Shown: piece after piece, positions 2,601-18,000 of the stretch
How the letters are laid out: every line of letters begins with the position of its first letter
How positions within the stretch are numbered: position 1 is the first letter of the stretch
Source: a phage
Length of the DNA stretch: 64,000 nt
Reading direction: 5' to 3' (one strand)
NCBI GenBank assembly: GCA_024682255.1
Contig: GCA_024682255.1_4716.1
Notes under the pieces: model-generated
Databases searched by the model: none
What the model saw: only the letters and a program-made list of their open reading frames with translations
What the model was told of the DNA's origin: nothing
Position numbers and translations under genes: made by a program

Positions 2601-5594
2601 ATGAGCGTAACCAACAAAGATCTTGCTGAACAGCTCAATCGCTATATGCTTTCACCTATTGAAATGCAGGCTGTTGCAAGCGATATGATCCGTTTGGCCT
2701 CTGATGGCGAGTTAACCCTGGTTGACCCCAGCTGTCCGTTTGTTTATCTGCTGGAGGTTGCAACAGCAACGGCTGCGAACCAGAACGCGCGGGATGAGTC
2801 CCGTGTTCGCGAACTGTATCCGAAGCTTGCAACGAACTGGAACCAGCTCTATCGTTGGATGTATGATGAGTCGTACGTCGGACGTTTCGCAATGCCGGGT
2901 AAAACGGAAATCATTTATTCGTTAGGGTATCAGGAAATCCTCGATCGTGCGGTAGAAATTCCAAACAACGCCACCTCCGATGATTTAAGCCGTTCTTACA
3001 GCCGTAAGTTAGTGATACCACGTACGACGGCGTTTACGGTAGCCGGAATGGATTTCGGATTGCATTATCCCATCGAAATCCAGGTGCAAGCGCACGACCA
3101 GATCCGTGTCGTTTATAACACTGATAACATCAGCCCGCTGCAAACCTTGGAGAGTAACCAAGTTGAGTACGGGGTTGTTCGTGTAAAAGCGGGTAAAGTG
3201 TTGGTGATGCGTATCCCGCTGTTCCAGTTTAAAACGCTGGTAAAAGATGTACCGTTTAACAGCGTTCACGGGATGAACAGCAGCATTACCTTCGAAGATC
3301 AGTTTTACCACTGTCGTGCGTACATGTCGTCGGATAACGATACCTGGACGGAGATAGCGACAACACACAGTCAGCAGATCTACGATCCGTTAACACCAAC
3401 TATCGCGTTACAAGTAGAAGGGAACAAACTTAACTGGCGTGTTCCTGAAATTTATTTGTCTCAAGGTACGATGGATAAAAGCACCATTCGACTCGAGGTG
3501 TTGACGACGAAAGGGAAAATCAGCGTCGACCCGTCTGATTACGACGTGACCGATTGGAAAGATAACTACATCGATTTGTCACCAAAAGCCGAACAGAAAT
3601 ACAGTGCTCCACTAAGCGCGTTCAACATTAAAGGGATTTATAGCGAAGGGGCATTGTCGGGTGGACGATCTGCGTTAACGTTCGAGGAACAACGTGAACG
3701 TGTTATGGCGGGCGTGAACAAAACCAAGGTGCCGATCACAGGAACGCAGGTAGAGCTGGTGCTTCAAGATGCGGGTTATGGGATGGTGACCACCATCGAT
3801 AACGTAACCAATCGTTCGTTCCTGGCAACCCGAGATTTACCGCAATTGAGCGACAGCGTGCCGCAAGCCGGTTCGTTGATGGGGTCTTTCTATACGTCAG
3901 CTGCAGCATTGGTGAAAAGTAAGTTTGTCGCTGATAACGGCGATCGTATTACGATTAAACCGGATTGCTTGTATCGTGACAGTAACGGAAGTATCGCACT
4001 GTTGTCGGACGATGAAATTGACCGTATTAATGCAGGCAACTCCGATGCGAAGTTGAACGCGGTAAACAACGCCATGTTGTTTTACAGTCCGTTTCATTAC
4101 GTATTAGACGCAACAAGCGATTTCGACATCCATGCTTATTACCTGGATGCCCCTAAGATCGGCACACAAGCATTCCTCGACGCGAACGAGACAATCCCGT
4201 TAACCGCTATGGTGACCGGATACCGTCTGGATCGTATCGCTGAAGGATATCGTCTAAGCCTCATTGTAGAAGGTAACGACGCATGGAAGGCGCTCGACGA
4301 TAAAAACGTGCATATCCAGCTGGGGTTCAATCCGCGGGGTGAGGGTGATTATGCGACGATGTTGGCGTCACCGACAACCGATGAACAAGGTCGTCGTTTG
4401 TTCACCTTCGATATCACCACGAATTATGATTTTACGCGGATCCTGGCCGATGATTCCACGGCGTATGAACCGTATATCGCATTGACCTCTTTCTCGATGT
4501 ATGAATCGACACCGCGGGATTATTGGGCATCACTGCAGCAGTACCTGGAAATATTCCATGTGGTGACGGATTACGCACCGGAAGATGTCGACGGTATTTT
4601 ACACAGTGCTTCCGATAATTACCTGGTTAAGAAACTCACGCTTCAAAATGGGTATTGTTTCTACCGTGAACGTCTCACCGCAACCTTTGGTTATGATCTG
4701 GACGGTCTTTGGATGCGCTCTCGTACGGTGGCCTCGGAGATTACGTATAAACGTTACACCGAGAACATCCCGTGGGTGTATGATGAAGATATTCCAGCGA
4801 CGGATGAGACCGGTTCGGTTATCATCGAGCAAGGTGATGATGGTACGTTGTCGGTTAAATATCTACATCGTAAAGGTGACCCGAAATTAAACAGTGATGG
4901 AAGCCAAGCCTATCGTTATCTGAAAGGCGACATCATGAAAGATAATTACGGTAATCCGATCCCTGTCGATGAACGTGAAGTTCTGCGTAACCTGGACATG
5001 TTCTTTATTGATGCGTCGTATCTGCTCGCGAACGATACGGACGTGATTGACTATCGTAACACGATTCCTACTCAGCTTATCGAGTGGATCCAGAACGATA
5101 TCAGCACGTTCAAGAATTTCTGTTATGAGGAAACAGCGATTTCACTGTATCCTAAGCAATCGCTGGGGTATGTGGATGTTATTGTGGAAAACGGATTGGA
5201 AACAACGCTTCCTGCTGCCTTATCGTTCAACGTGACGCTTTACTTACCGGCTAAGCAATACGCAGACTTGGATCTACGTCAAGTCCTTCAAGCGATGGTA
5301 TCGAAAGTCATCAATGAATGTTTAACATCCCGTACAGTGGCTAAAGCAGAAATGATCGCGATGATTCGTGAGGAGGGTGGCGACGACATCCTGAACGTTG
5401 AAATCGATGATTTTGGACCAGGTAAGAACCTCAGTGTTTATACCGCGAAGAACGATGGTGTTCGTTGTGCGGTGAAGAAAGAGCTTTATGTTAAAGCGGA
5501 TGGTATCTTGTCCGTACGCGAAGCGATTGATGTGAATTTTGTGAAACACGCACAAAGCAACAGTTCAGCGCTAGCGGAAGGCCTTCGTGTCTAA
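2601..5594 (+). CDS. large hypothetical protein (997 aa), virion-type
   Basis: Long ORF, ATG 4 nt after the preceding stop, GAGGGA upstream; no catalytic motif recognised. Confidence 0.65.
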   Translation: MSVTNKDLAEQLNRYMLSPIEMQAVASDMIRLASDGELTLVDPSCPFVYLLEVATATAANQNARDESRVRELYPKLATNWNQLYRWMYDESYVGRFAMPGKTEIIYSLGYQEILDRAVEIPNNATSDDLSRSYSRKLVIPRTTAFTVAGMDFGLHYPIEIQVQAHDQIRVVYNTDNISPLQTLESNQVEYGVVRVKAGKVLVMRIPLFQFKTLVKDVPFNSVHGMNSSITFEDQFYHCRAYMSSDNDTWTEIATTHSQQIYDPLTPTIALQVEGNKLNWRVPEIYLSQGTMDKSTIRLEVLTTKGKISVDPSDYDVTDWKDNYIDLSPKAEQKYSAPLSAFNIKGIYSEGALSGGRSALTFEEQRERVMAGVNKTKVPITGTQVELVLQDAGYGMVTTIDNVTNRSFLATRDLPQLSDSVPQAGSLMGSFYTSAAALVKSKFVADNGDRITIKPDCLYRDSNGSIALLSDDEIDRINAGNSDAKLNAVNNAMLFYSPFHYVLDATSDFDIHAYYLDAPKIGTQAFLDANETIPLTAMVTGYRLDRIAEGYRLSLIVEGNDAWKALDDKNVHIQLGFNPRGEGDYATMLASPTTDEQGRRLFTFDITTNYDFTRILADDSTAYEPYIALTSFSMYESTPRDYWASLQQYLEIFHVVTDYAPEDVDGILHSASDNYLVKKLTLQNGYCFYRERLTATFGYDLDGLWMRSRTVASEITYKRYTENIPWVYDEDIPATDETGSVIIEQGDDGTLSVKYLHRKGDPKLNSDGSQAYRYLKGDIMKDNYGNPIPVDEREVLRNLDMFFIDASYLLANDTDVIDYRNTIPTQLIEWIQNDISTFKNFCYEETAISLYPKQSLGYVDVIVENGLETTLPAALSFNVTLYLPAKQYADLDLRQVLQAMVSKVINECLTSRTVAKAEMIAMIREEGGDDILNVEIDDFGPGKNLSVYTAKNDGVRCAVKKELYVKADGILSVREAIDVNFVKHAQSNSSALAEGLRV

Positions 5595-5615
5595 AACAAA
5601 ATAGCATGAGCATAA

Positions 5616-5647
5616 CCCTCCTCCAACCCAACAGGGAAGGAGGAGGG
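5616..5647. terminator. bidirectional hairpin terminator (CCCTCCTCC / GGAGGAGGG stem)
   Basis: Perfect 9-bp GC-rich stem with 14-nt loop containing an inner CCC/GGG mini-stem, between convergent genes ending at 5594 and 5657. Confidence 0.6.
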
Positions 5648-5656
5648 AATATGCTG

Positions 5657-8600
5657 TTATCTTACGTTATTGCTATTCTGCTGTTCGCTGAACCAACCAT
5701 ACACCTTGAGATCGGTACCGTATTTCAATGCGATATACGCATTCAGCGCAGCACAGAACAAAGACGCGAATGCCCATATCAGCGAAGGATCAACATCTTC
5801 CGTTACCACCTGGAGAGTATTATCCGGTTCCCATGATGGAGAACTGTCCATGAACGTTGCGTACCATCCCCGCCGTTGTTCTTCGGTGGTAAAGTCGCTA
5901 TGAGGTTCCAACGCTTCTTTTGCCAGACGTCGATATTCGAACATATGCGTTGCTAAAGCCGATGAGTTACCAGATTCGCCTTCATAGTTCGGATCCACCG
6001 CATAACAGAGTTCTGTTGAATCTAACAAAGCAACCGCCTGTGTGATGCTGTCGGCAGTACCTGCACCATAGAGCTCGATAGACCGCGAAAGCTTTTCACA
6101 GAACGTATTTAACGCGGCAGGATTGGACACCTGAAGGTCAAGGCCTAATGTCCACGGATAGTTACTGAACACACCCGTGAACCGCGGCATAACACCCAAC
6201 AGATGCTGACCGATTACGGCACGGTTATAAACAGCCCGGTTATAGACTTGAAACGCAGCCTCCAAGGCTTGGTTATAATGACGACGAAGTTCATCACGTG
6301 AGTTGCGGAATCTGTTTGCCGCAAGACTCGTGGCTGCGACGCTACAAACATCGTAATTGGTGGACGAAAGCACAACCTCGTTAAGATCGAACGCTTCCTG
6401 TTTCAATGTTCCGCTAACAGCCGCCGCTTCGCTGTTCGCTTTATCGACAACAGTACTCAAGGCGTTGATGTAACGTTTAGCTCGGACTTCCAGCCACTGT
6501 GCGATGCCGAGAATATCCACCGCAGCTTTAGCAAGATCGCGTGCATTCACGATTTCGTTCTTCAACGCCCCTAAACCTTTATTCTCAGGCGAAGAGGCTT
6601 GTTGGCGAATCATGCTGTTCAACATGGTAAGCAGATTATCCAACTCATGTCCACTGACCTTGTTACGCGCATCGGTAATCGGCCCTTGCAGGAATTTACG
6701 GCAACCGTCGTTGTATCGAATCAGTTTATCCACATCGATAGATTCGTTCGTGGATTCCTTGAACTGATCCTTCAATTCTTCACGGTAGTCGTGGATTTCA
6801 CTTGCGAGATTGTCGATAGTGATACCATCATGTCCAAGAAGAACTTTATCGAAGTTACCTTTCTCGAATGCCAGAGCAAGACCTTCACGAATCTTAGCGA
6901 GTTTATCTTGATCGAGTTCACGCCCGTTCGATAGCTCTTTCACTTCCGAACTGATTAGTGCCGCAACGTTACCCAGATTGTCGGTAACGCCTTTGAACGC
7001 TCCCGACCAGATCGTTCCTGCTTCAGCGTATTTCGCAATGGTCTGAATACCGACGGTGTGCAACGACGCTAAACGTTTCTTCGTGCCTTCGGTAAGCAGA
7101 GCGTCTTTAGCTCGTGTAAGCTGACTGTTATTGGCTTCCGCCTGCTGAATCGCTGCTTTCGCACTTCCATTACGCCAGCTCTTAACCAGCCAATCGACCA
7201 AACGTTTTAGAATGTTGACGGTGTATTCCATCGTCCGCCGTAACGTTTCCCACGCGCTTTCTGCGGTATAGATGCCGTACCCTTCCATCTTCAACGCTTT
7301 CAAGCTTGTTTGACGTGCCAACCATTCTACCGTTGCAGAACAAACGTTTACTAATGCTTCTAGGTAGTTGTAATAGACGTCTGTTGCAGCCGTTTCGTTG
7401 AGCTTTGAATGCAGATAAAACTGATCGTAAAGTTCGTCGTCATCGCCGAAGGCATCGTAGTTCCACAGCTCAGTATCGCAGCCTGTGCCGCAGAAGACGT
7501 CTGCTGTTGTAAACTCTTTAAGCGCTTTAGCCGCATCATTCGTCAGGAATTTACCTGTTTCAACTACATCATCGACGTTAAGCTTGGGGAGTTCATCGGT
7601 AACTGGCTCTTGCAACATTAACGTGTTGAAGAATGCGCTGTACTTGTATCCGAGCCATTTTGGATAACTGCTTTCAGGTATCGTAGACAACGGCTTGATT
7701 TTCTTGGCTTCAGCCAGCGTGTCTTTTGCAACCTGATATTGGTTTTCCCCAGCCTTGATGCGTCGTAACGCTTTTTCTTCCAACTGCTGGAGTTTGGCAT
7801 GCCGTGCTTGTGCTGGAGCTTCAACGAGTTTTTGTACCGACTGCATTGCTGAAATCGCTTCTTTTAATACGATCATCGGCATACGAACTTTGCCGTCGTC
7901 AAAACTAAGAGCACGAGCGACACGCTTACTTACGACAGGTTTGTCGTGGATATTTCGTTCCACCCACGATTTGTTTGCGTAAGTTTGAGCGATTTGCTGT
8001 TGGATATTTTCAAGGTATTTCCAGCTTTTGGATGCCTTGCTATCCAAAAGCGGATTCGGTCCCTTCTTATCGAAAAGTTTCAGAATCGGATCAAAGAAAC
8101 CTTCCTGTACAAGATCGATACGTGTATATCCGTCAGCCGCTTCGATTTCTTCTTGGGTTTTATCCCAAAGCTCTTCGCTACGGATAGCAGTAGCGGTTTC
8201 AGATACCGACATAACAAGCTCAGCAACAGCTTCAGCGTAAGTCAGTACGGTACGCACACATTGCACTAACATGCGCTGGTAAACGATACGTGCGTTTTGC
8301 AGACGTGCGATAACCGCTAAATATCCGATGTTGTCAAGATTTTCATCGGCTTGAGCGGATTCAACGCGTTCTAACAGTTGTTTAACTAGCGCCGCTGTTT
8401 CTGGGTAATCGTTCACGACGTCACGCATGATTCGTGATGCGAAAACCGCGGTACCTAAAACGGTGAGAAGTGTTTTACCGTCCCATTCTTTCGGTGCTGC
8501 TACCGATTCAGTAGGGATGAGATTTCCCGCTTGGTCGAAGTACGGCATAAGGACATTGATATCAGTCGACGGAACAGCAGTAACTGCGTTGTACTCTTCA

Positions 8601-14140: not shown

Positions 14141-15640
14141 ATGAGCGAACAAGAACGAAAACCTAAGAAGAAACTGCTCGGTATTCAATGTCGACACATC
14201 AGCTATAACGAAGCGAACGATGGCAGCAAGAACGACCTCATGATCGCAAAAGAGATCATGTTCTTTGATGATAATACGCAAGCGACGAACCTTCGCTTCT
14301 TCGAGAATTACAAACGTCCGTTTTGGGTGACGGTAGAGAGTAAACGTAAGAACAAATATAAAAAGGAAAGCGAGAAGCTCTCGCACGTACGTCGCTATGA
14401 TGTCCGTCAAAGTGAACTGGTTGAAAAGATCAGTTCGGTGCTTTATAAAAGACGTGCTGATGATAACACCCGTTTACAGCAGCTTGCACGGAGTCCATAC
14501 CTCTATGGAACGGACGTTAGCGCTAGCTGTTATTTAAAAACCCAATACAATACAAAATGGCCGGAATACGTCGATAAATTACCCGCTTCCATCGCCTGTT
14601 TCGATATCGAAACCGACGTTGTCCATGGACACGGTAAGATCGTCTGTATGTCTATTACAATGGGATACAATGCGATCCTTTGCTATACCAAGGACTTCGT
14701 TGGTCATATTCCGAATGCGATTGAGAAAACCCATGAGAAGATTCGATATTACCTGGCCGAACGTCTAAACACCAAAGAAGATCCGCACGCATTTGAAAAA
14801 TATCAGTACGATGTGCGAATCGTAGAAAGTCCGGCACAAGCGGTCATCCAATGCATGCAGAAGGTTCACGAATGGCAGCCGGATTATCTCCTTGGCTGGA
14901 ATATCGCGTTCGATATTCCGCGCATGCTCCAGGCACTGAACGAAGAAGGGTATCGTCCCGAGGATGTTTTCTCCGATCCCCGTGTACCACCTAAGTATCG
15001 TATTGCTCGCTGGGTACCACCGAAGACCGACAAGGTATCTGCTTCAGGGCGTAAAACCAACCTTACCCTTGAGCAAACCTGGCCGATGTTTTATACGATG
15101 GCTACGTATCAGGTTATGGATGCGATGTGTGGTTATAAGTTCGTTCGTTTAGGAAGACCGGATGAGGGACGTTATTCACTCGATGCGGTATTAGAGCGAA
15201 ATAAATGCCATACGAAATTAAAAGCAATTCCTGGTACAGAAGGGTTCACAGAGCTTGCGTGGCACGAAGAGATGCAAACGAACCATCAAATCGACTACGG
15301 TGTATATAACCTTTGGGATAACCAAGGCATCGAGGCGTTGGACCAGAAAACAAAAGACTATTCGATGACCATCCCTATCCGTTTAGCGGCGTCGGATTTG
15401 AAAGATTTCAGTTCTAACCCTAAACGTATCTGCGATAAACTTTTCTTCGTTTATCTTAACCGTGGGGAAGTCATGGGCTGCACTGCCGACGACATGACCC
15501 AGGAAGAAGATAAGTGGGTTATCTCACGAACCGGACATATCGTCACATTGCCGTGCGATCTCATGGCGGACAACGGCATCCATCTCTTCTGGGATATGCC
15601 GAACCTGAGAAGTTATATTAGATTATTTGTTGCGGATTAA
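14141..15640 (+). CDS. DnaQ-like (DEDDy) 3'-5' exonuclease (499 aa)
   Basis: Exo I (CFDIETD), Exo II (WNIAFDIP) and Exo III (YNLWD) motifs in canonical order; no obvious SD before the ATG. Confidence 0.65.
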   Translation: MSEQERKPKKKLLGIQCRHISYNEANDGSKNDLMIAKEIMFFDDNTQATNLRFFENYKRPFWVTVESKRKNKYKKESEKLSHVRRYDVRQSELVEKISSVLYKRRADDNTRLQQLARSPYLYGTDVSASCYLKTQYNTKWPEYVDKLPASIACFDIETDVVHGHGKIVCMSITMGYNAILCYTKDFVGHIPNAIEKTHEKIRYYLAERLNTKEDPHAFEKYQYDVRIVESPAQAVIQCMQKVHEWQPDYLLGWNIAFDIPRMLQALNEEGYRPEDVFSDPRVPPKYRIARWVPPKTDKVSASGRKTNLTLEQTWPMFYTMATYQVMDAMCGYKFVRLGRPDEGRYSLDAVLERNKCHTKLKAIPGTEGFTELAWHEEMQTNHQIDYGVYNLWDNQGIEALDQKTKDYSMTIPIRLAASDLKDFSSNPKRICDKLFFVYLNRGEVMGCTADDMTQEEDKWVISRTGHIVTLPCDLMADNGIHLFWDMPNLRSYIRLFVAD

Positions 15641-15707
15641 GAAATAAATCGGTTAAGTTTTACCTCCTTTCTCGATAAGTATGATACTAAGCGAGCAAGG
15701 AGTTGAT

Positions 15708-16814
15708 ATGTCGAGTAGTTATGAGTATCCAAAGATTACTGAATGTGTTGTTTCCGAAGAAGGTATCTTCGACCTCGATATGAAGCCGTTACCACTTACC
15801 GTGGAAGATGGAATATCGTACGTCAAACTTGACTGGTACCGTGGTCCCGGTCTGTATGACGCAGGTCTTGTGGTAATGCGTAAACTGCATGCTATCAACA
15901 TATACGAAGATCTGTTAGACGAAGCACATTCGTTGTATATCGATGGGAACCCAGAAAACATCAAACGTGAGAACTTGCTTTATCGTTTCAAGAACGGTAA
16001 GTTGGAACACAAGGGTTATCCGGGCTATTACTACGTCCCTTTCTTTACACACTACGTGATAAACGAGCAAGGCGAAGTGATCAGTCTTTTAACCGGGCAA
16101 AAGAAATCATGGACACGGTCGAAAGGGGATCCGAAACGAAATAAGCGTGCTGGGTACTTATATCAGCGCGTCGTTAATGATAATGGTTTCACAGCCCAAA
16201 TGTTTCAACATCGTGCGATGGGTTACGTGTTCCTGGAATACGGTGCCGACGTGATGACAAAGATCATCAACCACATAAACGGCATCAAATGGGATAATCG
16301 TCCATGCAACATTGAATGGACAACCTATTCTGAGAACAACAAGCATGCGATTGATAGCGGTCTTCGTACAGAAGGCTTACATCCTGTTAAGGTTAAGGAT
16401 TACAACACCGGTGAGGTTAGGGTATTCCCAACAATCGCTGCGTGCTGTGCTGCTTATCCATGCTTGGAACGTAAACGTGTTTGGTATTGGATGACGCGTA
16501 AAACGAAATTCATGCCAGCCTGCAATCTGTATTTCAAAGAAGTCGATGATGATACTCCGTGGCCAGATTGGCAAATCGGACAGCACCGTCGTCTTCAGGA
16601 ATACGATATGGGCCACCCTATCGCAGCTATCGATAAGCAAACCGGTAAACGTTATGTGTTTGCATCAATTGCTCACGCACAACGAGAGACGGGTGTTTCT
16701 AACGTGACTATCACGAAGTACTGTCGTAATAGACTTACAGAAGGTCGTTCTCCATTCATCTTCCGCTATTTTGAAGATGTTAGTTCGATGCCTGTAGGCC
16801 TTAACGACGCTTAA
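15708..16814 (+). CDS. HNH homing endonuclease with C-terminal HTH (NUMOD-like) region
   Basis: HNH motif region INHINGIKWDNRPCNIEWTTYSENNKHA; C-terminal IASIAHAQRETGVSNVTITKYC; ATG at 15708 with AAGGAG 5 nt upstream (track frame starts 15681). Confidence 0.75.
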   Translation: MSSSYEYPKITECVVSEEGIFDLDMKPLPLTVEDGISYVKLDWYRGPGLYDAGLVVMRKLHAINIYEDLLDEAHSLYIDGNPENIKRENLLYRFKNGKLEHKGYPGYYYVPFFTHYVINEQGEVISLLTGQKKSWTRSKGDPKRNKRAGYLYQRVVNDNGFTAQMFQHRAMGYVFLEYGADVMTKIINHINGIKWDNRPCNIEWTTYSENNKHAIDSGLRTEGLHPVKVKDYNTGEVRVFPTIAACCAAYPCLERKRVWYWMTRKTKFMPACNLYFKEVDDDTPWPDWQIGQHRRLQEYDMGHPIAAIDKQTGKRYVFASIAHAQRETGVSNVTITKYCRNRLTEGRSPFIFRYFEDVSSMPVGLNDA

Positions 16815-16827
16815 CCGATTTTAGGTC

Positions 16828-16852
16828 CCGGTGGGGATAACGCCCCCACCGG
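16828..16852 (+). terminator. hairpin after HNH gene (CCGGTGGGG / CCCCACCGG)
   Basis: Perfect 9-bp stem with 7-nt loop, 14 nt after the HNH stop. Confidence 0.5.
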
Positions 16853-16869
16853 ATTCCCGTTAATTGCTG

Positions 16870-17200
16870 GAACCCCCTAAAGCCTTTCGACCACAGCGGA
16901 TTCTGAAAAGAAAAACGCGATGGTTAGAAAACAGAAAGGATGTTCGTAAGGAAGCGATAAATGGGCAATCAGCAGCGAAGCTTCTAAGGGCGTGCGTTAG
17001 CAATAAGACCTAAGAAGAACGTTCAACGACTATCCGGTCGCGCGGAGTAAGGGACAAGCGTCCCCAAACACGGGAGGGGTGCGAAAGCATTCCATGATAT
17101 AGTCTGCTCCTAAGTGAAAGCTTAGGCGGGTGGCACACACCGGCATAAGAGTTGCGTCTTATGTGGACAATGGCTTGACATCTCCTCGTCCTACCCGAAT
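16870..17200 (+). ncRNA. putative group I intron catalytic core (R- and S-like elements, P9-like hairpin)
   Basis: GTTCAACGACTA (about 17021-17032) resembles the R element and GATATAGTC (about 17095-17103) the S element, with complementary GACTA/TAGTC for P7; followed by CCTAAG-TGAAAG-CTTAGG hairpin; sits directly after an HNH gene; boundaries uncertain. Confidence 0.35.
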
Positions 17201-17476
17201 GGGCAGATCCTGTTGAATCTATCCAGAGCATGTGTTTTTCGTGAGCTCTCACGCATTGAGGGCGTCTCTGACTATCAATTCAGGAAGTTAGGTATCAACT
17301 TTATTACCGGAGGTAAAACGAACGCTGTAGACTTCTGTAGAATCGTTTATAAAGCACCGTCGATGTTTGAACTTTTAGAACATTTCGATGCGACGCGTCC
17401 AAAAGAGGAAGCACGGACCATCGAATGAATCAAGTATGTTGATCCTCGTTTAACAAAAAAGAAAACGCATGCGAAG

Positions 17477-17508
17477 CCCCTCCCCCTGGCGGAAGCCGGA
17501 GGGAGGGG
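17477..17508 (-). terminator. hairpin terminator (CCCCTCCC / GGGAGGGG) with T-run on minus strand
   Basis: GC-rich stem followed on the minus strand by TTTTTTGTT; immediately after the gene ending at 17515. Confidence 0.55.
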
Positions 17509-17514
17509 TGGGGT

Positions 17515-18000
17515 TTATGTGTGTTCGTTGCCAACTTTCACTTTGTAATCAGCATCGGTTAAGAAAATAGACAGGAATCCATGTTCTTTGCAAATCTGAC
17601 TAAGGATGTCAGCAATGATTTCGTTGATCATCGGTTTGTTTGCAAGGGCATAGATGTACCCGGGTGTAAAAGAAAGTGCATGATTGATCATAGGCTCATG
17701 AGAAGCCAAGATAAGGATCACGTGATGCTTCCCATCGTCGGTAACGACCGCTTGCGTAGACACGAAGAAATCAGTGAAGCAGCAGCGATCACAGGCTTTA
17801 GGTATATACAAATCACCCAGAGCTTCGTCACGTGCTTTTACGTGTGTTTCAGGGGTAATGCTGCTAAGTTGATCTTCAGCGAGATCCAAGACATCCTCAA
17901 TCGTTTTAAGAATAGCGTTGCGGAAATCCTCGCGGTAGAATGGGATGATATCACGATCGTTCATGTAATCGCCGGATTCGATAGTAAAGTTGATGTTCAT
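17515..18000 (-). CDS. small hypothetical protein (161 aa)
   Basis: ATG with AGGAG 7 nt upstream; own downstream hairpin. Confidence 0.6.
   Translation of the reverse strand: MNINFTIESGDYMNDRDIIPFYREDFRNAILKTIEDVLDLAEDQLSSITPETHVKARDEALGDLYIPKACDRCCFTDFFVSTQAVVTDDGKHHVILILASHEPMINHALSFTPGYIYALANKPMINEIIADILSQICKEHGFLSIFLTDADYKVKVGNEHT

Follow-up and report, generated by a model that had tools for sequence, protein, structure and literature searches.

Introduction

Group I introns that carry genes for HNH nicking endonucleases are known from the DNA polymerase genes of the Bacillus phages SPO1, SP82 and phi-e (I-HmuI and I-HmuII) and Bastille (I-BasI) (Goodrich-Blair & Shub 1994, 1996; Landthaler & Shub 2003; as these studies are cited in PMC12908238 and PMC11620839). 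A further example, with competition and interference demonstrated, is the gp210 intron of PhiPA3, situated in the virion RNA polymerase gene (Birkholz et al. 2024, PMC11620839), and in PhiPA3 and phiKZ the use of an intron endonuclease as a weapon between co-infecting phages has been shown (PMC11620839). Here we report a computational analysis of a 64,000-nt stretch of phage DNA (GenBank assembly GCA_024682255.1, contig GCA_024682255.1_4716.1; the whole stretch is hereafter "the window"), in which positions 15638..17173 very probably represent a mobile group I intron, subgroup IA-like, that lies within the gene for DNA polymerase in a Goslar-like, nucleus-forming jumbo phage.

An earlier reading of the window from its letters alone (the sequence-only reading) had put forward a possible HNH-bearing group I intron for this locus, a proposal that is supported and refined below. 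Our search of open-access papers and preprints turned up no account of an intron in the polymerase gene of either Goslar or PhiPA3. The element is in kind a textbook homing intron; what it offers is a corrected model of the polymerase gene and a trio of alleles among close relatives.

Exon joining and the predicted polymerase product

The 499-aa open reading frame (ORF) of the locus corresponds to positions 5–494 of PHROG 3011 (a profile named "DNA polymerase", of 576 positions), and a frame downstream that has no start corresponds to positions 495–571. Because the profile is split in this way over two frames, colinearity is lost precisely where the ORF ends and is regained downstream. Four intron-less homologs, from Ralstonia phage RSF1, Pseudomonas phages 201phi2-1 (gp144) and PA7 and Vibrio phage pVp-JHP1101, were found by alignment to be colinear across the junction, reading ...xxAD|LDIxSxYPN... 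and thus running on past residue 499, an end at which had been named by the sequence-only reading as evidence against the intron. Since these homologs are continuous over AD|LD, the intron was placed at 15638..17173, with exon 2 starting at 17174. The start-less frame 17126..17428 had been put forward as a second exon; it does contain exon 2, in the same frame as exon 1, but the exon begins 48 nt further on.

The last codon of exon 1 is GAT (15635..15637), and the first codons of exon 2 are CTT GAC. The exon frames 14141..15640 and 17126..17428 form one genomic frame, the intron being 1536 nt (3 x 512) long, and the intron opens with the TAA (15638..15640) at which the 499-aa ORF appears to stop. 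Joined, the exons encode 583 aa with the predicted protein junction ...FVAD|LDISSSYPN..., spanned by the peptide ...FVADLDISSSYPNGQ.... The predicted joined RNA reads ...GUUGCGGAU followed by CUUGACAUC..., so that GCGGAU meets CUUGAC, and the corresponding DNA with the intron deleted is GCGGAT|CTTGACATCTCCTCG.

The strongest confirmation of this joining, at the level of sequence, comes from a relative that has no interruption. A large protein database holds a 583-aa protein (P0001) that is 100% identical to the predicted spliced product, and its gene is uninterrupted at 4001..5752 of L034, a 237,273-nt Goslar-like contig (ENA ERZ27286049), where it is colinear with the joined exons of the window at 96.3% DNA identity. 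The earlier suspicion that the true product differs from the one given by the list of ORFs is thereby upheld. In addition, the amino acids of exon 2 are 100% identical to those encoded by unannotated Goslar DNA.

The host gene had been taken for a plain exonuclease gene, an identity replaced here on the basis of PHROG 3011 and Foldseek. An AlphaFold model of P0001, made with 95 homologs, had a mean pLDDT of 88 and a pTM of 0.82, and its best Foldseek matches in the Protein Data Bank (PDB) were RB69 and T4 gp43, Pol epsilon and E. coli Pol II (top match E 7e-13, probability 1.00, ~450 aligned columns of ~900-residue targets). As the confident part of the model matches RB69 and T4 gp43, the host protein is, on this structural prediction, the N-terminal/exonuclease half of a family B polymerase, reaching the start of the palm. 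A weak Pfam match to DNA_pol_B_exo1 was also found. The exonuclease motif residues D155 and E157 are invariant in the 95 homologs, as are D499, D501, Y506 and P507. The motif A pattern of family B polymerases, DxxSLYPS, fits D501-I-S-S-S-Y506-P507-N, and the splice site falls between D499 and L500, two codons ahead of the presumed catalytic aspartate D501. No match to the rest of the polymerase (fingers, palm and thumb) was found among window ORFs of at least 280 aa.

Ribozyme core and its family

A search of Rfam gave a match to the group I intron model RF00028 at 16801..17126 on the plus strand (68.7 bits, E 2.5e-15, full model 1–253), well over the gathering score of 50 bits; this was the only match at gathering threshold over the 64-kb window, and its score is well outside what chance would give. 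All helices of a P3–P9 core could be located (Table 1), and P3 and P7 covary in 22 distinct introns, so that both the Rfam hit and the foldable core called for by the sequence-only reading were obtained. Among the elements which that reading had named, GTTCAACGACTA (17021..17032) and the HNH ORF (15708..16814) are present within 1 nt, the P9 hairpin CCTAAG-TGAAAG-CTTAGG lies at 17109..17126, and GATATAGTC is present but at 17096..17104 instead of 17095–17103. The assignment of the first and last of these as R and S elements with the complementary GACTA/TAGTC of P7 is borne out by the Rfam alignment and by P7 covariation. The non-coding sequence after the HNH gene had been put at about 450 nt; the actual ribozyme part is 359 nt (16815..17173).

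P7.1 and P7.2, which come after P7 and before the 3' strand of P3, form a 34-nt insertion in the Rfam alignment. Two such hairpins in this place are the hallmark of subgroup IA in the Michel & Westhof classification, and they point to that subgroup for the intron.

An exact 29-nt P7/P7.1 motif was found in 24 viral contigs of IMG/VR (L006–L029), all 24 of which also have the J3/4-P4 and S elements at fitting distances. Covariation of P3 and P7 was judged by alignment-free complementarity tests on the 22 distinct sequences of this family. At the variable P7 pair, 18 members have U-A and four have C-G, with no mismatch in any, and P3 is complementary in 22/22 members despite widely differing sequence; the mean length of P3 was 7.05 bp for a member's own helix versus 5.47 bp when its 5' strand was set against the 3' regions of other members. 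MAFFT alignment of seven cores aligned the conserved blocks and not the variable hairpins. Most of the contigs with the 29-nt motif are, to judge by their sequences, unrelated phages, so that the intron family is widespread.

Two of these contigs (L016 and L027), which at 242 and 237 kb are of Goslar's size, have the intron in a region without similarity to the window. The window's ribozyme core also has blastn similarity to stretches of PhiPA3 and phiKZ-like phages that bear the annotation of RNA polymerase beta subunit genes (Table 1), which suggests the presence of related introns in those genes.

P1, the guide sequence and the looped-out HNH gene

The sequence-only reading was sound in its overall identification of a group I intron with an HNH gene; it overlooked P1, the GGAU|U and guide strands of which are separated by the HNH gene. 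The guide sequence follows the HNH gene and P1 is closed by a 13-bp extension (Table 1), which places the gene in the P1 loop. A U15637.G16825 wobble is located at the 5' splice site, and G17173 directly precedes exon 2. The predicted duplex of P1 with its extension has an energy of −18.6 kcal/mol compared to −7.3 ± 2.2 kcal/mol in shuffled sequences, with none of 500 shuffles as good. The Goslar intron has the same GGAU|U and GGUCC with an 8-bp extension of unrelated sequence (UCGUUCU.. / ..AGAACGA; −14.8 kcal/mol), and when strands of the window and Goslar introns were cross-combined the extension was lost (−5.1 and −7.4 kcal/mol). AG-GUCC directly 5' of P2 is conserved in both types of intron, and an ORF-less intron of PhiPA3 has GGAU|UAA-AUA-UUAGUCC, a plain P1 hairpin. 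P10 would consist of 2 bp, exon 2 CU with AG at 16823..16824.

Other placements of P1 and of the guide were considered. Rfam positions P1 and P2 locally at 16805..16843 with several non-canonical pairs, and its local P1 was dismissed because the end of the 5' exon is 1.2 kb upstream. In the stretch from the 5' splice site to the start of the HNH gene, the sole candidate for a guide was AAGUUU(U)AC (15655..15663), a block conserved in Goslar; it would pair as U.G, A-U, G.U and G.U and is far weaker than GUCC. Sequence neighboring that block (ACCUCCUU, in Goslar ACUUCAUGU) is partly within the hairpin that masks the Shine-Dalgarno sequence described below.

The protein encoded in the loop had Pfam matches to HNH_3 (33.5 bits, cut-off 24.8, 3.2e-08) and NUMOD1 (24.9 bits, cut-off 22.8, 2.3e-05) and matched PHROG 59, "HNH endonuclease" (2.2e-22). 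It is 41% identical to Goslar gp069, 31% to an HNH protein of Pseudomonas phage HPP-Temi and 28% to phiKZ gp179. Its start was set at 15708, as the Shine-Dalgarno sequence AAGGAG (15697..15702) lies 5 nt upstream; the alternative start at 15681 was dropped for this reason, and similarity to gp069 begins later still. The Shine-Dalgarno sequence is buried in a predicted hairpin (Table 1). In the Goslar leader (L001 4517..4586) the GAGG is likewise buried, by a hairpin that is stronger and unlike the window's in sequence (−26.2 kcal/mol, z −5.0). These predicted structures suggest that translation of the HNH gene is restrained or regulated by a leader hairpin. For the T4 endonuclease I-TevI, a hairpin covering the ribosome-binding site has been reported to hold back translation.

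Three allelic states among Goslar-like relatives

The window and Goslar have 88–92% DNA identity in the flanking genes and 96.9% in exon 1, and their identity ends at 15640 and returns at 17173. Goslar, a laboratory-grown phage, has its own intron at the identical site, which is 1762 nt long with a longer P5 region and has a predicted join of ...GCGGAU to CUCGAUAUA...; its Rfam score of 44.7 bits (E 1.5e-9) is below the gathering score. The RefSeq record of Goslar annotates only the 499-aa gp068 and a "NUMOD1 domain protein", gp069, leaving exon 2 and the remainder of the intron unannotated. The window-type intron was found in the window and in L021, whose 94.5% identity to the window continues across the intron; the Goslar-type intron was found in Goslar (L001/L019) and L010; and an empty site was found in L034, with the junction GCAGAC|CTTGACATTAGCAGT. 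Three allelic states, as read from these contigs, thus coexist among closely related genomes. The search of IMG/VR for intron-less close relatives gave interrupted copies only; it was the protein database that supplied the empty allele.

Across the alleles the proteins have 0–2 substitutions over 583 aa, none of them near the junction, and the genes have 65–78 nucleotide differences. Silent differences are clustered within ~45 nt on each side of the insertion point (15590..15637 and 17174..17220 in comparisons with L001, L021 and L034). Their peak in a 60-nt interval was 15 between the window and L034, 20 between Goslar and L034, 10 between the window and L021, and 11 between the window and Goslar, compared with about 2 per 60 nt elsewhere. 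The silent changes near the junction include TCN/AGY swaps of serine codons. The intron-containing alleles all agree over the last 18 nt before the splice site (...GATTATTTGTTGCGGAT), the P1 bases among them. This pattern of silent substitutions would fit co-conversion of the flanks in the course of homing from diverged donors, and likewise selection for P1 pairing or selection for resistance to cleavage.

Insertions in the wider family

Gene 085 of PhiPA3, a DNA polymerase gene, is interrupted by a group I intron of 344 nt that has no ORF and scores 71.7 bits in Rfam. The insertion point (ADLD|IVSTYPN) is 6 nt, or 2 codons, downstream of that in the window, and exon 2 of the gene is unannotated. 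A 41%-identical homolog in L035 (Logan SRR29149956_154) has an ORF-less core after ...ADLDVKSA that scored 37.9 bits, below the gathering score. Its exon 2 (5838..6032) is followed by a free-standing HNH_3 gene on the opposite strand (6081..7043) and by a second copy of exon 2 (7114..7296). Approximately 20 more homologs in the protein database end at 479–499 aa. With related introns in other jumbo phages 6 and ~20 nt downstream of the window's site, the apparent motif A site is, from these sequences, an intron hot spot in the wider family.

A G+C-rich inverted repeat (17465..17512; CCCCTCCCCC...GGAGGGAGGGG) was observed between exon 2 and a convergent minus-strand ORF (17515..18000). In its sequence it looks like a bidirectional terminator.

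Table 1. Predicted features of the intron-containing polymerase locus in the window, and related loci in other phages.
Feature	Position	Strand	Description and basis
Exon 1, predicted family B DNA polymerase N-terminal/exonuclease half	14141..15637	+	499 codons ending ...FVAD; PHROG 3011, intron-less homologs, Foldseek
P1 5' strand GGAU|U	15634..15638	+	5' splice site after U15637; duplex prediction, Goslar, PhiPA3
Group I intron	15638..17173	+	1536 nt; UAA start, terminal G (omega-G) at 17173; Goslar comparison, AD|LD homologs, L034
P1 extension 5' strand AAAUCGGUUAAGU	15646..15658	+	13 bp with 16809..16821
Shine-Dalgarno-burying hairpin	15660..15706	+	Minimum free energy (MFE) −15.7 kcal/mol, z −2.3
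HNH homing endonuclease gene	15708..16814	+	368 aa, in loop of extended P1; Pfam, PHROG
P1 extension 3' strand GCUUAACCGAUUU	16809..16821	+	Overlaps last codon and stop codon of HNH gene
Internal guide sequence GGUCC, P1 3' strand	16824..16828	+	Directly 5' of P2; duplex prediction
P2 hairpin	16829..16851	+	CGGUGGGG / CCCCACCG; fold
P3 5' strand UUCCCGU	16854..16860	+	Pairs with 17070..17076; Rfam alignment, family complementarity
J3/4, P4, P5, P6/P6a/P6b	16862..17020	+	Rfam alignment, MFE fold
P4	16865..16870 with 16969..16974	+	Rfam alignment, MFE fold
P5	within 16875..16965 (approximate)	+	~85-nt extension
P6/6a/6b	16975..17020 (approximate)	+	Rfam alignment, MFE fold
R element GUUCAACGACUA	17021..17032	+	Includes P7 5' strand GACUA, 17028..17032
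P7.1 hairpin UCCG-GUCGCG-CGGA	17033..17046	+	Rfam alignment, fold
P7.2 hairpin GGGAC-AAGC-GUCCC	17051..17064	+	Rfam alignment, fold
P3 3' strand ACGGGAG	17070..17076	+	Rfam alignment, fold
P8 hairpin	17077..17092	+	GAAA tetraloop
S element GAUAUAGUC	17096..17104	+	Includes P7 3' strand UAGUC, 17100..17104
P9	17109..17126	+	GAAA loop
P9.1	between P9 and P9.2	+	Rfam alignment, fold
P9.2	17144..17163	+	Rfam alignment, fold
Exon 2	17174..17428	+	84 codons and stop, LDISSSYPNGQ...; PHROG 3011, Goslar DNA, L034
Goslar intron/exon 2 region	L001 4498..6514 = NC_048170.1 81187..83203		1762-nt intron and 84-codon exon 2
PhiPA3 intron	L033 4157..4500 (HQ630627)		Gene 085 region, L033 4157..4736 (HQ630627.1)
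L035 polymerase/intron region	5471..7296		Duplicated exon-2 region flanks HNH gene
blastn matches to core	PA7 NC_042060 256860..257011; PhiPA3 HQ630627 55374..55450		Annotated RNA polymerase beta subunit genes

Discussion

Our analyses favor a mobile group I intron, for which we propose the following mechanism. In the pre-mRNA, GGAU at the end of exon 1 would pair with the guide GGUCC 1.2 kb downstream, while the 13-bp extension of P1 would draw the two strands together with the HNH gene looped out. The P3–P9 core would then catalyze two guanosine-initiated transesterifications that join ...GCG GAU to CUU GAC..., and the resulting 583-aa protein would regain the invariant D499-L-D501...Y506-P507. 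The looped-out gene, with its ribosome-binding site masked by a hairpin, would encode an HNH/NUMOD1 endonuclease that nicks the polymerase gene of co-infecting relatives, into which the intron would be copied (homing); this last step is proposed by analogy with I-HmuI, I-BasI and PhiPA3 gp210. Homing of this kind would go with a site that is polymorphic in close relatives, being empty or occupied by the window-type intron or by a diverged sister intron.

Several points weigh against this interpretation. Splicing and the exact junction are inferred from DNA, the activity and target of the endonuclease are predictions, and mobility is deduced from comparison with the systems just named. The HNH protein gave only noise, and no match to a solved HNH homing enzyme, when searched against PDB sequences. 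The exon share of P1 is only 4 bp and P10 only 2 bp, and the long-range P1 is a manual reassignment, as the Rfam alignment puts a poor local "P1" at 16805..16830. The insertion site is apparently motif A, as judged from pattern and invariance only; a Pfam scan gave no match to DNA_pol_B across the junction, PDB sequence searches with the spliced polymerase and with a 5-sequence profile gave only noise and did not reach the motif region, and confidence in the structure model is low over residues 496–512.

The alternative that fares best is one in which the intron splices but is an immobile passenger, its HNH protein being inactive or without a cleavable target and the different alleles being the products of old events. 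We regard this as unlikely. A close relative with an empty site in the flank GCGGAT|CTTGAC was not found, the only empty allele (L034) being heavily recoded at the site, and the endonuclease has no detectable similarity to characterized PDB enzymes, as an immobile passenger would allow. Against this, the ORF is of full length with HNH_3 and NUMOD1 intact and is 97.6% conserved at the protein level in L021; its Shine-Dalgarno sequence has been kept, together with a regulatory hairpin that is conserved in kind; and the occurrence of three site states in genomes that are 89–97% identical argues for recent turnover.

A second alternative dispenses with splicing, and has a free-standing HNH gene that split the polymerase into parts which are translated separately and reassembled, as in some T4-like phages. 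The splitting of genes by homing endonuclease genes is known, family B polymerases are already divided in this phage group (the 583-aa protein being the N-terminal half only), and the Goslar record lists only the 499-aa part. This explanation is nevertheless highly improbable, because from 17126 to 17213 the exon 2 frame has no in-frame ATG, GTG or TTG and no ribosome-binding site. Its starts occur only downstream of the invariant residues, and independent expression of exon 2 is therefore excluded, as D501, Y506 and P507 would be untranslatable. In addition, a ribozyme core that is complete and exceeds the Rfam threshold is located exactly between the two parts, the boundaries carry the U / omega-G signature, and the guide matches the exon. 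Least credible of all is a decaying pseudogene with an intron remnant that has lost splicing: the Goslar-type core does fall below the gathering score (44.7 bits) and P1 and P10 are short, yet exon differences are almost all synonymous (65–78 nt, 0–2 aa), the catalytic-motif residues are intact, the window core is well above threshold, the helices keep compensatory changes and Goslar is viable with the same arrangement.

The predicted spliced product has practical consequences for Goslar, a nucleus-forming model phage of E. coli, whose record gives a 499-aa subunit without D501, Y506 and P507 where 583 aa are predicted. Expressing, knocking down or modeling this protein, or mapping its transcripts, requires the spliced form. 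The allele trio and the introns nearby also offer a natural E. coli system for studies of endonuclease weapons and of escape from them by silent recoding. Tentatively, and with less confidence than we have in the intron itself, the apparent motif A site may be an active battleground of two diverged intron/endonuclease lineages and a silently recoded empty allele among near-identical genomes. If so, the HNH enzymes would damage the polymerase gene of co-infecting relatives, as with PhiPA3 gp210, the silent cluster with its TCN/AGY swaps would represent selection for immunity to cleavage and not co-conversion only, and the locus would allow intron-mediated interference between nucleus-forming phages to be modeled in E. 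coli.

Comparison with known systems

The nearest parallels to the locus are the DNA polymerase introns of SPO1, SP82 and Bastille and the gp210 intron of PhiPA3. The locus resembles those of SPO1, SP82, phi-e and Bastille in that a polymerase gene is interrupted at a conserved region, apparently a catalytic one in the window, by an HNH-bearing group I intron, and in that similar introns have highly divergent ORFs, the HNH proteins of the window and Goslar being 41% identical compared to ~97% for the exons. The polymerases of those four phages belong to family A. The host gene in the window differs from that of the Bacillus-phage introns in being a predicted family B half in a Gram-negative jumbo phage, and the window's intron has its ORF in the loop of P1. 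The window's endonuclease also differs from I-HmuI, with which a PDB search gave no match at the sequence level, and its nicking is a prediction.

Like the gp210 intron of PhiPA3, the window's intron is an HNH-bearing group I intron at the catalytic residues, here presumed, of an essential polymerase in a chimallivirus, and intron-less relatives exist. Unlike gp210, it is in a DNA and not an RNA polymerase gene, in a phage with an E. coli host, and interference, demonstrated for gp210, is for the window's intron a conjecture. The window's intron also resembles that of PhiPA3 gene 085, which shares the polymerase family and motif, a related core, GGAU|UAA, the GUCC guide and P7.1/P7.2; that intron differs in its position 6 nt downstream (ADLD|I versus AD|LD), in lacking an ORF and in having a P1 hairpin with a 3-nt loop.

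The window's intron is also similar to those of T4 td, nrdB and nrdD (sunY), with an IA-type core, P7.1/P7.2, extra P9 hairpins and an endonuclease gene that is looped out. The enzymes of the T4 introns are GIY-YIG or HNH-like, with differing architectures, and are encoded in P6 or P9 loops, whereas the ORF of the window's intron is in the loop of P1.

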